Part shown: positions 49,930 to 59,463 of the stretch, piece by piece
Layout of the letters: each line of letters starts with the position of its first letter
Numbering within the stretch: position 1 is the stretch's first letter
Origin: Candidatus Woesearchaeota archaeon
GTDB taxonomy: Archaea > Nanobdellota > Nanobdellia > Woesearchaeales > GW2011-AR4
Assembly: GCA_016188245.1 (NCBI GenBank)
Contig: JACPIE010000019.1
Coordinates: 1,442-65,441 of the forward strand
DNA: 64,000 nucleotides
Direction of reading: 5' to 3'
Notes under the pieces: model-generated
Seen by the model: the letters and a program-made list of their open reading frames with translations, nothing else
What the model was told of the DNA's origin: nothing
Database searches by the model: none
Translations under genes and position numbers: made by a program

Positions 49930-50556
49930 ATGAATAAAATAAATGTTATAGCATTAGCCCTAGTAATGGTTGTTTTGCTGTCAATTACAGCATTAAGCCA
50001 GTTAAGCCCCATAATTGACACTAAAAGCAAAACAACTCAGGTAACACCAACAATTAGCCTGGAAGAAAAGGATACTTGCATCACTACCTTTTATAATGAA
50101 GTGCAGAACGTGTATAGCAACTGCATCCATTACCTTAACTCCACAGGCTGCCTCAACACTACAGGCCCAAACACAGACTGTTCAGTTACCCAAAGCCAAA
50201 TTAACTATTCCTGCAAAACAGGAGAAATAACTGCTGCAAAAAACACAACAGAATGCAGCTCAAATAAGTTTATCGTATCAATCGGCAAAGTAAAGAAAGA
50301 GGTTGATTTCTCAAGCTGGGGCGTTTGCGTCAACAGCACTGAAAATAATTGCTTGGCAATCACATGCGGCACTTTGAAAGGAGGCAGCGCAAGAAACGGC
50401 ATCTTTAACGGATGCGATGGCGGCAAATCATGCCAAAAATTCTTGTTTTGCGAAGACAGCACAAGAGTGCTTTACAAAGCTTCTAGAAGTGATTTTATCT
50501 ATGAAGACCCTACTTTCCACCTGAGCAAATTGGCTTATCAGGAGGTGACACAATGA
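49930..50556 (+). CDS. Secreted Cys-rich protein, unknown function
   Basis: It has a signal-peptide-like N terminus (MNKINVIALALVMVVLLSITALSQ), many Cys residues and several N-x-S/T sequons. A strong SD (GAGGTGA) lies 6 nt upstream. Confidence 0.6.
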   Translation: MNKINVIALALVMVVLLSITALSQLSPIIDTKSKTTQVTPTISLEEKDTCITTFYNEVQNVYSNCIHYLNSTGCLNTTGPNTDCSVTQSQINYSCKTGEITAAKNTTECSSNKFIVSIGKVKKEVDFSSWGVCVNSTENNCLAITCGTLKGGSARNGIFNGCDGGKSCQKFLFCEDSTRVLYKASRSDFIYEDPTFHLSKLAYQEVTQ

Positions 50557-51746
50557 AAAAGATATTATTTTTGCTCATCGCAATGCTTTTAGCAGTCTTG
50601 CCTTTTGCTTTTTCACTTGAATATGCAAGGGATGACCACGGGAAAGTTATGGACCAATCGACTACTGCAAGCGGATGGAGCTATGGATGGCTTGTAAAGC
50701 CAAACAAGAACATAACTTTGGTCAACGCAACACAGCCAACCAACACATCAATGACCAGAGCATATATCAGCAAATCTGGAAATAATGTTTATGCGGAAAC
50801 TACAGATATATCATCAGATGGCAAAACATTTTACTTTACAGCAGATGCGTTTATGCAGGAGGGGGTTGAGCACTGCATTGTTGCAGATGCCGGAAAGCAT
50901 AACTATTCGCTTGACACCTCATTGCCATATAATCTGATTAATGTGAATATAACAGGCAGATGCTATGTCTCTTATGGCTCTGCCCCCAATATGGAGGTTG
51001 GCGGACAGCCAAGAGTTTGGCAGGAAATATGGAGTTATGAAAATGTTACAACACTAAATGACACAACACCGCCAGAAATAACTTACTATAATTTAACAAG
51101 CAGCGATAATGGATGTGAAAACTGGAATACTAATAAAAATACAGCATGCAGCACCTCTTCTGTAACCCCAACAGTTCAGTTTAACACTAGCGAGAATGCT
51201 TGGTGTGCTGTAGCTGGAAGCAGCAGCTCAATCTCCTTAAATTTAAACTATACAGATATGGGCAGTTCAAGAAACTGCACAGGAGATGCTTCTGGAGAAG
51301 GCACAAGAGAGCATTTCTGCACATTAACAAATCAGGACGAGCTTGTATATGACACTTCTTATCTTTTCATAAGCTGCAAAAACTCTGGCAATAATCAGAA
51401 TGCAACAAGCACAAGCAGCGCTTTAAAGCTTTCAATAACTGGCTTGGAAGCTGCCGGAAGAACTTCTATTGGTTTGGGTATTCAAAATGCTTTGCTGAGC
51501 GGCTACATTAACTACACAGACCTGCAGATTTATGCAAGAAATCTGAGCAATGATCAAGTAAGAGGAACTTTTGACAGGGCTGCAAAAAAAGGCAGCAAAA
51601 TGTGGGCTTTTAACCGCATTGGAGTTTCTGACAGCTATGTGAATATGTTCAACCTGACTCCTGTATTGTATACTTTGGAATTGGCTAATAAGACTTCCAG
51701 CAACATAACGCTGCAAGTGGAGCAGCTGATTAATGCAACAAAATGA
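50553..51746 (+). CDS. Secreted sequon-rich protein, unknown function
   Basis: It has a signal peptide (MKKILFLLIAMLLAVLPFAFS) and an AGGAGGTGA SD. Its start overlaps the upstream stop (ATGA). Confidence 0.6.
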   Translation: MKKILFLLIAMLLAVLPFAFSLEYARDDHGKVMDQSTTASGWSYGWLVKPNKNITLVNATQPTNTSMTRAYISKSGNNVYAETTDISSDGKTFYFTADAFMQEGVEHCIVADAGKHNYSLDTSLPYNLINVNITGRCYVSYGSAPNMEVGGQPRVWQEIWSYENVTTLNDTTPPEITYYNLTSSDNGCENWNTNKNTACSTSSVTPTVQFNTSENAWCAVAGSSSSISLNLNYTDMGSSRNCTGDASGEGTREHFCTLTNQDELVYDTSYLFISCKNSGNNQNATSTSSALKLSITGLEAAGRTSIGLGIQNALLSGYINYTDLQIYARNLSNDQVRGTFDRAAKKGSKMWAFNRIGVSDSYVNMFNLTPVLYTLELANKTSSNITLQVEQLINATK

Positions 51747-58800: not shown

Positions 58801-59463
58801 GAACTTGGAAATCATAATGTTACTTTAAATGTCTCAGACGGAACTGCAAATGCAACAATGCAGTGGAATGTTTCTGTCATAAACCAATCCAGCATTAATG
58901 TTTATGATTTAACATTGCTAAGCCGGAACTCAACATCGGCTATTTTTGGGTTTAACATAAACAATACCGGCAACAGCGATATGTCAGGAATCAACTGGAG
59001 CCTTAACACGGGCCAGGAAACAATTTCAGCTAATGCCTTGTTCAGCCTGCAGCCTAATGAGAGCATATTTGTATTTGTAAGCTATAATTATTCTGCAGCG
59101 GGGGATTATACTATAACCGCGTCTGCAACGAACAAAACGCATGCAGACTCAGAAAGCATGGCAATTGATATTGAGGATATAGAAGCCTATAACCTGACTG
59201 TTGTGAACGAGTCCGGCACTAAAAGAATATTTGAGTTTATAATCAAAAATTCCTTAGACACTAACCTAACTAATGTCAACTGGACTTTTGATACCAAGAG
59301 TGGCAACGTTATAAATGCCACTGCAAACAACATGCTGCAGCCAAGCGAGGAATTGTTCGTTTATATTGACTATAACTTTACAGGAGCTGGAACATTTAAT
59401 GTAAATGCAACGGCAAGAAACGGGACTTTAACTGATTCAAGGAATTTGACGATAACGATATAA
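55822..59463 (+). CDS. Giant secreted adhesin-like protein (Cys-rich head, CARDB-like and cadherin-like repeats)
   Basis: It has a signal peptide (MRKLNLIWILALFLLIPNTLA), and its ATG overlaps the protease stop (ATGA). The order is a Cys-rich N-terminal region, 2 CARDB-like modules, about 4 tandem ~97-aa cadherin-like modules, then 2 more CARDB-like modules. Sequons occur throughout. No C-terminal anchor is evident. Confidence 0.75.
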   Translation: MRKLNLIWILALFLLIPNTLAYINCTTSACPSGYTDNGEVCQGSTCVRNCTRTICGSSWTQVHSNTFGWDVNADDEHYLSSTGYTPTDAKYCYNFSYKGPPASEPEIRMWGSTNPSFDCDDEMIGGFRQGAGEANPWFNGMSRYVGDKTNTDIERIIKIVRASAEEDSDSTYRNNAAGESSIYCGPTTGACSLHGGTSNCDTDCYNKSTVGRVGQGYYKDKGDVDTTLYDGAGCGGFVDANEYLSATFKVYETLAVIENSDQSCDRIHEAPSVSNVRVLPLTPNAGQDLLCNYTYSDPENFTEQNSSYEWWKNSVNQNINSQTLANSNLTPGDSWYCKVTPSDGLLFGTQQQSDNTVTIRNATQNPIFYINNSQTWNQTGYFGKEESVIDFNQELNNALANCSEDAEGFCNVSLTFSSNNFGILNLSDFGVYYTQGNVSVVVSLKIDSIITMYSNSTLKIFEFVILNDGQTAVTDIQWQFDTNNNFVINSTSNISSLVANEKAFVYVQYNFSGTGSYDVKANATGLRQSTSVTASLSSSVGIGDLIVSSFDDLSVQGTNVIFEIQAKNQLSENISNVNWSLDTKNNEIINATQLSSLSPNETIFIFVNYDYGTGGTYAPTATVTNTTYSDTKTASVTTNTAPVITPIPDIAFNEDTYNDSLNLSDYVSDSEDADSSLNWKAENNVNVIVTINQTTKRANFTALANWSGSENVKFTVNDTSGLTANDTILITVNAINDAPSFNSSKQIPNMTWPEDIVNNSLNLSKYFYDIDGDALNYTSTGTLNITVYIGNNTGIVNLTPNANWTGINYVIFTAKDIAGLTATSNNVTLNVTPVNDFPTFTGSIPQWKWQEDVINASLNLTQYFSDIDGDILKYNFTSVINITILINNNTGIVNFTPEQNFNGVRYAVFTAIDMENLTISSNNVTLNVTPINDPPAINTFTPSDLAQTIVLGNSLAFNHTSSDVDGDTLTYSWKLDSTQKSTELGWTYIPNSSELGNHNVTLNVSDGTANATMQWNVSVINQSSINVYDLTLLSRNSTSAIFGFNINNTGNSDMSGINWSLNTGQETISANALFSLQPNESIFVFVSYNYSAAGDYTITASATNKTHADSESMAIDIEDIEAYNLTVVNESGTKRIFEFIIKNSLDTNLTNVNWTFDTKSGNVINATANNMLQPSEELFVYIDYNFTGAGTFNVNATARNGTLTDSRNLTITI
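57742..58883 (+). repeat. About 4 tandem ~290-nt (~97-aa) coding repeats (cadherin/Ig-like modules) inside the adhesin gene; boundaries approximate
   Basis: Unit boundaries are marked by ..NAINDAPSF.., ..TPVNDFPTF.. and ..TPINDPPAI... Units 2 and 3 are the most similar (NNTGIVNLTPNANWTGINYVIFTAKDIAGLTATSNNVTLNVTPVND versus NNTGIVNFTPEQNFNGVRYAVFTAIDMENLTISSNNVTLNVTPIND). Confidence 0.7.

Follow-up and report, generated by a model that had tools for sequence, protein, structure and literature searches.

SlaA and SlaB, the surface-layer (S-layer) proteins of Sulfolobales, are encoded by adjacent, co-transcribed genes; both are secreted and heavily N-glycosylated, and a stalk and an outer component have been proposed for them (PMC5744192). 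The tetrabrachion of Staphylothermus marinus occurs with STABLE, a subtilisin-family protease for which precursor processing or the supply of peptides has been proposed (PMC5744192). The SPEARE proteins of Nanohaloarchaeota combine an extracellular serine protease with laminin-G/concanavalin A (ConA)-like and adhesion domains, and are proposed to act in host interaction; each is a single giant protein of 0.7-8.5 thousand amino acids (Ca. Nanopetramus has four copies, three of them longer than 3 thousand), and most possess a C-terminal transmembrane (TM) segment together with a type III restriction-enzyme domain on the cytoplasmic side (PMC6642349). The proteins now considered as candidates for host recognition in DPANN archaea are surface proteins of lectin-like or protease type (10.1101/2023.10.27.564410; PMC6642349); experiments have yet to establish any DPANN S-layer or attachment protein (10.1101/2023.10.27.564410), and according to reviews essentially no S-layer information exists for the phylum Woesearchaeota (PMC5744192). 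The subject of this report is an operon at positions 49930-59463 (+ strand) of a 64,000-nucleotide (nt) stretch of a Candidatus Woesearchaeota genome (contig JACPIE010000019.1, positions 1,442 to 65,441), referred to as the window. Few uncultivated DPANN archaea are as abundant as Woesearchaeota, and the first two genes of the operon, g1 and g2, are a good candidate for a cell-surface or attachment structure of this group.

The locus is a single translationally coupled operon, compact and conserved, in a Woesearchaeota (DPANN) genome. The initial annotation had presented six genes with equal parts in one dedicated structure. Six consecutive plus-strand open reading frames (ORFs) do appear in the ORF listing at 49930-59463, and their co-conservation in Woesearchaeota relatives bears out the operon as a unit; the equality of its members does not survive, g1 and g2 forming an invariant core and g3-g6 a modular, variable complement. 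Thirty-one loci were fetched, about 20 of them distinct, and their ORFs were compared with the modules of the window; 17 distinct relative loci retain the upstream DNA. In all 17 a g1 homologue of 200-228 amino acids (aa) lies immediately upstream of a g2 homologue, mostly with a 4-nt overlap, and the pairing holds even in the most distant locus, L031, in which g1 is 46% and the g2 base 49% identical. Protein searches yield at least 25 g1/g2 pairs on contigs of equal size. Metagenome-assembled genomes, mostly of groundwater, are the source of the g1, g2 and g3 homologues; those with names are nearly all assigned to Woesearchaeota, Nanoarchaeota or Nanoarchaeia, with a few evident mislabels. 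In loci of type A, as in the window, g3 is followed by a small FG-GAP-like ORF, then by a small multi-TM ORF, a large FG-GAP protein and a g6-like protein; this order is full in L003 and partial in L009, L016 and L012. Loci of type B (L005, L011, L022, L030 and L031) consist of g1, g2, an S8 protease of 381-1504 aa, which is constant among them, and a CARDB/PKD protein of 770-1142 aa, L011 being truncated on the upstream side of g2; in L029 the S8 protein is present and none of the other parts.

The g1 gene (49930-50556, +) encodes 208 aa with 12 Cys, and its product is secreted or N-terminally anchored. Its 134 homologues are 148-227 aa long (nearly all 180-227), and all that carry names are Woesearchaeota or Nanoarchaeia, a single Thaumarchaeota-labelled one excepted; they carry no Pfam domain. 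In the homologue alignment 10 Cys are invariant, and S23-Q24, which follows the hydrophobic segment, is conserved. An AlphaFold2 model with a predicted local distance difference test score (pLDDT) of 86.7 comprises an N-terminal helix (residues 3-23), two strands of ~33 residues each (42-74 and 84-118) and a small Cys-rich beta domain. Foldseek finds no significant match to this model in the PDB (best E ~0.02, TM-score <=0.21), and the best of the non-significant matches are the long hairpins of pore-state toxins.

The partner gene, g2 (50553-51746, +), encodes a secreted, predicted glycoprotein of 397 aa. In an alignment of 43 homologues a sharp boundary at a 'PDTTPP' linker divides a head (~22-170) from a base (~170-397, ~230 aa). 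The base is up to 88% identical among homologues and 47-88% identical across the full-length loci; it carries six nearly invariant Cys, the invariant residues R329, Q335, G338, D341, W351, N354, N367, Y373 and N379, and a conserved C-terminal ...LINATK. The head is unalignable among the 43 homologues except with four close relatives, and among the full-length loci it matches only L001, the contig of the window's own strain. Heads of recognisable type occur in homologues: Laminin_G_3, a ConA-like lectin domain, in seven of the 43 and, in one each, a carbohydrate-binding module (CBM96) and a disaggregatase repeat. The family is large, with 104 close homologues and, in an exhaustive profile search, 1035 clusters at 50% identity (E <=1e-3; 815 at E <=1e-10), in none of which does the conserved part have a Pfam assignment. 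In the AlphaFold2 model residues 170-397 reach pLDDT >90 and fold into an Ig-like sandwich and, after it, an alpha/beta module. No PDB sequence matches in a profile search, and Foldseek against the PDB and BFVD gives no significant match; weak matches to Ig-like domains of transglutaminase and NPC2, and a weak PD-(D/E)XK-like topology of residues 298-397, are likewise non-significant and were not accepted. Searches of Pfam, NCBIfam and PHROGs return nothing for g1, g2, g3 or g4. Judged by these comparisons, g1, g2 and g3 belong to no described family; the initial annotation had left the three unassigned, and none of them matches a known enzyme or any other family in Pfam, NCBIfam and PHROGs or, for g1 and g2, in the PDB and Foldseek searches.

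The products of the operon are rich in N-glycosylation sequons. Observed against composition-expected numbers are 18 and 8 in g2, 29 and 8 in g3, 25 and 12 in g5, and 74 and 31 in g6, an excess of 2-3.6 times expectation; g1 is only modestly enriched (5 observed, 3.4 expected). Cytoplasmic neighbour proteins have 0-2 sequons, and AglB, a membrane protein, has 5. Seven of the g2 sequons are conserved by position: N367 in 43/43 homologues, N379 in 42/43, N394 and N232 in 39/43 each, N283 in 37/43, N241 in 35/43 and N180 in 34/36. The g1 sequons N70, N76 and N105 are kept in 49-58 of 60 sequences (N70 in 58/60). Glycosylation genes neighbour every locus examined except L031, which has only a glycogen synthase (GT1 family) downstream.

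We hold at about even confidence that this locus specifies an N-glycosylated surface recognition or adhesion assembly, in which a g1/g2 core with a swappable binding head is joined by exchangeable protease and adhesin accessories; within that reading a function in attachment is plausible. Sec-type signals would export all of the long products, and the adjacent AglB would N-glycosylate them at the positionally conserved sequons with glycans made by the surrounding heptose and glycosyltransferase (GT) island. g1 and g2 would form a physical complex, their co-production favoured by the 4-nt overlap: g1 may be a disulfide-braced, elongated beta stalk, possibly held in the membrane by its N-terminal helix, onto which g2 would dock through its conserved two-domain C-terminal base, the hypervariable head facing outward. 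Because the heads of relatives are of lectin or carbohydrate-binding type, we propose that the g2 head is the ligand- or glycan-binding part and recognises a host cell or particle; the ConA-like lectin and CBM96 heads of the homologues thus lend added support to the idea of adhesion. The proteins g3, g5 and g6 would be exchangeable accessory surface proteins that add adhesion and local proteolysis.

Several observations weigh against this reading. The FG-GAP, PKD, cadherin-like and CARDB domains are generic extracellular modules and do not prove attachment: the initial annotation had called FG-GAP, cadherin-like and CARDB adhesion modules, and while the domains were indeed found, their use in adhesion does not follow from their presence. 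No C-terminal TM anchor and no sortase-type signal was found in the long operon proteins. The N-terminal helix of g1 may be either a membrane anchor or a cleaved signal (A-L-S↓Q, in the family A-x-S↓Q). The window's own g2 head has no lectin domain recognisable by Pfam and is modelled by AlphaFold2 at pLDDT <50. Only the g1-g2 pair is universal among the loci, and in L007 and L018 it is followed by other secreted, sequon-rich proteins of no assigned family. The dedicated, glycosylated attachment structure of the initial annotation thus stands in part: there is a conserved operon of exported, predicted glycoproteins in a glycosylation island beside aglB, and its sequence is compatible with attachment as well as with an S-layer or coat.

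A more ambitious form of the favoured reading, to which we give tentative credence short of even, makes g1 and g2 an unrecognised two-protein surface 'spike' or lattice unit widespread in Woesearchaeota, with two new folds, a conserved, glycan-decorated base, cassette-swapped lectin or carbohydrate-binding heads that set host or partner specificity, and plug-in enzymatic heads (a subtilase or a metal-site-like domain) on a shared FG-GAP scaffold. If it is true, the locus would supply the envelope and host-recognition structure that has long been missing for the uncultivated Woesearchaeota. The locus in any event offers concrete targets, namely two unannotated families (134 relatives of g1, >1000 clusters of g2) with confident structure models; its fixed glycosylation sites adjoin the glycosylation machinery, and its variable head could explain partner specificity. 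Tests by antibody, glycan array, fitting into cryo-electron tomograms and metaproteomics become possible, and g1/g2 may serve as a marker of surface-type diversity in metagenomes.

The most durable competitor, though an unlikely one in our estimate, is a two-component S-layer in which g2 would be the lattice-forming outer glycoprotein and g1 its stalk or anchor, by analogy with SlaA/SlaB, a surface-bound subtilase being co-encoded as with tetrabrachion and STABLE. A translationally coupled, bicistronic pair of secreted, predicted glycoproteins would suit such a layer, as would the large, widespread g2 family and its conserved glycosylation sites. The 82% identity of the g2 base to that of L003, comparable to that of the cytoplasmic enzymes GT2 (78%) and GT9 (71%), fits the constraints of a multi-contact lattice; co-encoding of a subtilase has its parallel in Staphylothermus (PMC5744192), and nothing is known of Woesearchaeota S-layers (PMC5744192; 10.1101/2023.10.27.564410). 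Against the lattice, neither sequence nor fold resembles any solved S-layer protein (PDB, Foldseek), and g2 and its homologues (397-640 aa) are small beside MJ1_0160, the 1000-aa DPANN candidate (10.1101/2023.10.27.564410). One metagenome-assembled genome carries two g2 paralogues (L014 and L021), and lectin or carbohydrate-binding heads better suit a receptor-binding protein. Moreover, the same window encodes, at 28218-31946, a 1241-aa protein with the canonical architecture of an archaeal S-layer glycoprotein: besides a signal peptide and 64 sequons it has Ig-like repeats, a Gly/Ser linker and a Cys-rich segment, and its C-terminal TM anchor carries a basic tail.

The enzymatic part of the operon is g5 (53027-55825, +), whose 932-aa secreted product joins an S8 domain to FG-GAP repeats and a C-terminal Ig-like domain. 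Its earlier description as an S8 protease fused to FG-GAP repeats is upheld by Pfam and by intact catalytic residues. PF00082 (Peptidase_S8) matches at E 8e-37 (127.5 bits, cutoff 21.8); D53 (DTG), H98 (HGT), S291 (GTSFSTP) and the oxyanion residue N203 (AAGN) are all present, and PDB subtilases match at E 1e-25 to 1e-14, the closest being 7xr8 and 3afg at ~1e-25. PF13517 (FG-GAP_3) matches three stretches at E 1e-17 (64.6 bits, cutoff 26.9), with six DxDxDG-type loops. By these features g5 is a genuine S8 subtilase carried on a Ca-binding FG-GAP propeller, and it is predicted to be active. No I9 propeptide match was found in g5, the S8 match beginning at ~residue 24-46, directly after the signal peptide; such propeptides are typical of classical secreted subtilisins and are not obligatory for S8 membership.

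The initial annotation had made g5 the structure's own maturation protease. The closest syntenic relatives, L003 and L009, speak against that role, for they carry a non-S8 head on the FG-GAP scaffold. The L003 orthologue, 63% identical in the propeller and 87% in the C-domain, has an unrelated head of ~340 aa (13040-14059) in place of the subtilase, joined at the same DWPTENHDYRRTGFTLLK linker, and the same head motif, 'YYWLGR[VI]AHLLEDA[ST]VPAHMHLD' (H-x3-D-x5-H), occurs in L009 after its g3 (about 3000-3200). Since the S8 head is swapped in these loci, the enzyme head looks like an exchangeable effector rather than an obligatory processing enzyme. The non-S8 head has no match in Pfam (E up to 1) or in phmmer searches of PDB sequences; its motif may resemble the Zn site of phospholipase C and P1 nuclease, and the head could be a metal-dependent hydrolase.

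The last gene, g6 (55822-59463, +), encodes a secreted, 1213-aa rod of Ig-like modules: a Cys-rich N-domain, CARDB-like pairs, three tandem-95/cadherin-like repeats and a PKD domain. Of its description as CARDB/cadherin-like, the second half holds for g6 itself and the first for its homologues. Above cutoff in g6 are NF012211 (tandem-95; 100.4 bits, cutoff 90), Cadherin_5 (48 bits, cutoff 26.5) and PKD (41.4 bits, cutoff 23.5), and Pfam also matches Big_9; CARDB reaches 20.2 bits, below its cutoff of 22.7, and passes in the operon-closing homologues of L022 (E 3.8e-9), L030 and L031. Residues 441-636 of g6 are 47-68% identical to the operon-closing proteins (~770 aa or more) of L005, L011, L022, L030 and L031. 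In L027 (823-5565) a single 1580-aa protein unites FG-GAP, S8, the C-domain of g5 and the CARDB-like modules of g6, a fusion of the Rosetta-stone type that links g5 and g6 functionally.

A predicted active subtilase, the lack of C-terminal anchors, and the precedent of STABLE, for which a supply of peptides for fermentation has been proposed (PMC5744192), could also be taken to mean that the locus makes secreted, nutrient-scavenging exoproteins, a protease with binding modules and with g1 and g2 as soluble accessory factors, free of any structural or attachment role. This we consider improbable: the invariant parts are g1 and g2, not the protease, whose head has given way to another in L003 and L009; that g1 and g2 are strictly paired and the g2 base so extremely conserved points to a structural complex; and the locus is embedded in envelope-glycosylation genes.

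More improbable still is a g1 that would act as a beta-hairpin pore-former, aimed at a host membrane by the g2 head so as to open, as a binary toxin does, a conduit into the host. The idea draws on the top Foldseek matches of g1, which are CDTb, lysenin, anthrax protective antigen, aerolysin and haemolysins in the pore state, and on the need of DPANN archaea for access to the host cytoplasm (PMC6642349). All of these matches are non-significant (E >=0.02, TM-score <=0.21), reflecting long hairpins only, and the g1 hairpins, which bear the conserved sequons N70, N76 and N105 together with invariant Cys and are not amphipathic, are incompatible with membrane insertion.

That the locus belongs to a virus, provirus or mobile island encoding receptor-binding or tail-fibre-like proteins is scarcely credible, for although a hypervariable head on a conserved base recalls phage receptor-binding proteins and the GC content of the window dips to 0.30 at 52-54 kb, g1-g4 have no match in PHROGs, no fold match to g2 was found in BFVD and no relative on IMG/VR contigs, synteny with housekeeping glycosylation genes is seen at the locus in many genomes, and the dip is accounted for by AAT-rich sequon repeats in g3. 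No defence signal appeared in the PHROGs (g1-g4) and IMG/VR searches; PADLOC was not run.

Between the core and g5 lie three smaller genes. The first, g3 (51780-52682, +), encodes a secreted protein of 300 aa, of which the N-terminal half is a sequon-saturated spacer and the C-terminal ~50% a globular domain that is conserved in its 39 homologues. Reading the g3 N terminus as a type IV pilin (KQG↓EF) is less likely than cleavage by signal peptidase I at VSA↓Q, and no pilus machinery accompanies it. The gene follows g2 in L003, L009 and L016; in L012 it is displaced, and ~7.7 kb of apparently cytoplasmic genes, including two paralogous minus-strand ORFs, stand between the g2 and g3 homologues (10889-18105) and may be a mobile element.

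The initial annotation counted six genes, all of which are present; it overlooked a seventh, an ORF of 39 aa (MNETKFNGGSAVADIDLNGDMEVIVADVHKNFGGVSYGF) at 52679-52798 (+). This ORF overlaps the g3 stop by ATGA and also overlaps the g4 start; it was called by the gene caller on contig L001 as well, and has positional counterparts of 84 aa in L003 (12488-12742) and 63 aa in L012 (19163-19354). Its sequence resembles a blade of an FG-GAP propeller: the 77 nt at 52687-52763 are 81% identical to 54526-54602 within g5. Twelve of the 14 differing codons are synonymous, so that the small ORF appears to be under constraint at the level of protein. It has no signal peptide, and an extracellular-type blade encoded without an export signal is a puzzle. 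Programmed frameshifting that would fuse g3 to the small ORF was rejected, as the frame relation varies (-1 in the window and L003, +1 in L012), and the conserved 'GGVSYGF' end of the small ORFs proved to be the g4 Shine-Dalgarno (SD) sequence and ATG read in another frame. A template/variable-repeat pair of a diversity-generating retroelement (DGR) was likewise discarded as the source of the 77-nt repeat, its mismatches falling at A, T, G and C alike and mostly at synonymous third positions; no reverse-transcriptase scan covered the rest of the window. The third small gene, g4, encodes 83 aa with two TM segments (13-31 and 60-78, by hydropathy). In its place L003 has a small multi-TM ORF of 103 aa and L012 one of 92 aa, and the similarity is confined to an N-terminal M-x-FRR.

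The genes were said to be chained by SD sites or ATGA overlaps, which is correct for g1, g2, g3, g4 and g6 and incorrect for g5. An SD sequence, AGAGGTGA, lies at 49916-49923 (+), 6 nt ahead of the g1 ATG; the g1/g2 and g5/g6 junctions are 4-nt ATGA overlaps; the g3 start is preceded by GGAGGTGA. In g4 the ORF is open from 52758 and the likely start is ATG 52788, giving a gene at 52788-53039 (+), with GGAGGTG 6 nt ahead of that ATG. The g5 ORF is open from 52928; its likely start, ATG 53027 (MEKVNILIVVF...), has no SD, overlaps the g4 stop by 13 nt, bears a signal peptide, and was called independently (932 aa) on the near-identical metagenome contig L001. A hydrophobic N-terminal segment was found by hydropathy in all six products, in keeping with the signal or anchor earlier ascribed to each of them.

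Upstream, a candidate archaeal TATA box, TTAAATA (49757-49763, +), stands ~167 nt before the g1 ATG and is invariant upstream of g1 homologues in 13 loci. Some 27 nt further on, a run of nine G (49790-49798, +) is the likely start of a ~140-nt leader; a G-rich, GGGGGTG-like element is found at the same place in 13/13 aligned loci, the run being G9 in the window and G4-G8 elsewhere. Between the G-run and the SD come a AAAAAGAGG-like element and then ~100 nt of poor conservation, and the SD core GAGGTG is invariant 6-7 nt ahead of the g1 start codon in 13/13 loci. TTAAATA, G-run and SD, shared by 13 loci, fit one archaeal promoter with a ~140-nt leader; TTAAATA is the inferred promoter element of the operon, and co-transcription we infer from the gene overlaps and from this single conserved promoter-like element. 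A regulatory or phase-variable role is conceivable for the homopolymeric G tract, which lies where transcription presumably starts. The conserved leader upstream of g1 matched no Rfam family, and Rfam and tRNA scans of the window gave no matches; a scan for sigma-70 promoters and terminators, a model not applicable to archaea, gave counts no higher than the shuffled expectation. The operon ends at a T-rich spacer of 16 nt (59464-59479) between the g6 stop and the stop of a convergent DUF2304 gene.

The flanks are those that the initial annotation named, as a Pfam scan of the neighbours confirms, with heptose and GT9 genes upstream and aglB downstream. On the upstream side stand a GmhA-like SIS protein, a PfkB kinase, a cytidylyltransferase and an HAD phosphatase (a set of the ADP-heptose type) and GT9; on the downstream side, convergent with the operon, DUF2304, GT2 and STT3/AglB. 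Over 23-64 kb, the span scanned, most ORFs are glycosylation genes (an epimerase, several GT2 and GT4, two GT9, PMT/PMT_2-like membrane glycosyltransferases, a methyltransferase, the heptose pathway and AglB), which makes an unusually large island for a small DPANN genome. Within the heptose-pathway string, between the SIS/GmhA-like and PfkB kinase genes, a 306-aa ORF (46181-47101, -) has no Pfam match at E <=1e-3. The N terminus of AglB (63300-63557, -) has a cytoplasmic extension of ~90 aa in which an acidic/basic motif occurs three times, as DEDISIDFSKIKNFFKS, DEEINIDFGKIKKWFKS and DDELPIDWSKIIGFFKK, before the first TM segment. The gene for the 1241-aa protein occupies a low-GC stretch (0.32-0.34) between GT2 (27359-28075) and GT9 (31951-32946). 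The L003 operon adjoins orthologues of both (78% and 71% identical, respectively), which are directly adjacent there, so that the intervening gene of the window looks like a variable insertion.

Set against the described systems, the locus resembles each in some respects and coincides with none. Like slaA and slaB, g1 and g2 are adjacent, and they overlap by 4 nt, encode secreted proteins and are paired in 17/17 loci; they differ in showing no similarity of sequence or fold (PDB sequences, Foldseek), in the hydrophobic helix of g1, which is N-terminal rather than C-terminal in a protein otherwise all-beta and free of coiled coil, and in g2, which is much smaller than SlaA and has a hypervariable head, of lectin type in some relatives. 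With tetrabrachion and STABLE the locus shares the association of a surface glycoprotein assembly with a subtilisin-family protease, but here a coiled-coil stalk is lacking, the protease forms one protein with an FG-GAP propeller and is dispensable in L003 and L009, and the structural proteins are not homologous. With SPEARE it shares a DPANN origin and the presence of protease and adhesion domains, Laminin_G_3 occurring only in g2 homologues (7/43) and not in the g2 of the window; its modules are distributed over separate genes (208-1213 aa), with neither a C-terminal TM segment nor a restriction-enzyme Pfam domain, and g1 and the g2 base have no SPEARE counterpart. The putative S-layer and lectin-like proteins of Nanobdella aerobiophila (MJ1_0160, MJ1_0179 and others), set apart here by their description only, are single large polypeptides, some with C-terminal TM helices, for which no two-gene core has been described. 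As for type IV pili and archaella, no Pfam domains of PilB/PilC-type ATPases or platform proteins were found in the operon and the ORFs over 28-64 kb, and the signal peptides of the operon look, by eye, to be of the Sec/signal peptidase I type rather than class III (putative sites AFS↓L, VSA↓Q, VLA↓L and TLA↓Y). Since features that define SlaAB, tetrabrachion, SPEARE, type IV pilus and DGR systems are absent, the locus is a member of none of them. An operon for glycosylated archaeal surface proteins is of a known and expected kind; what is new is a core of two unannotated families that occur strictly as a pair and whose confidently modelled folds are unmatched, together with cassette-like heads, enzymatic heads that are interchangeable, and a constant embedding in N-glycosylation islands.

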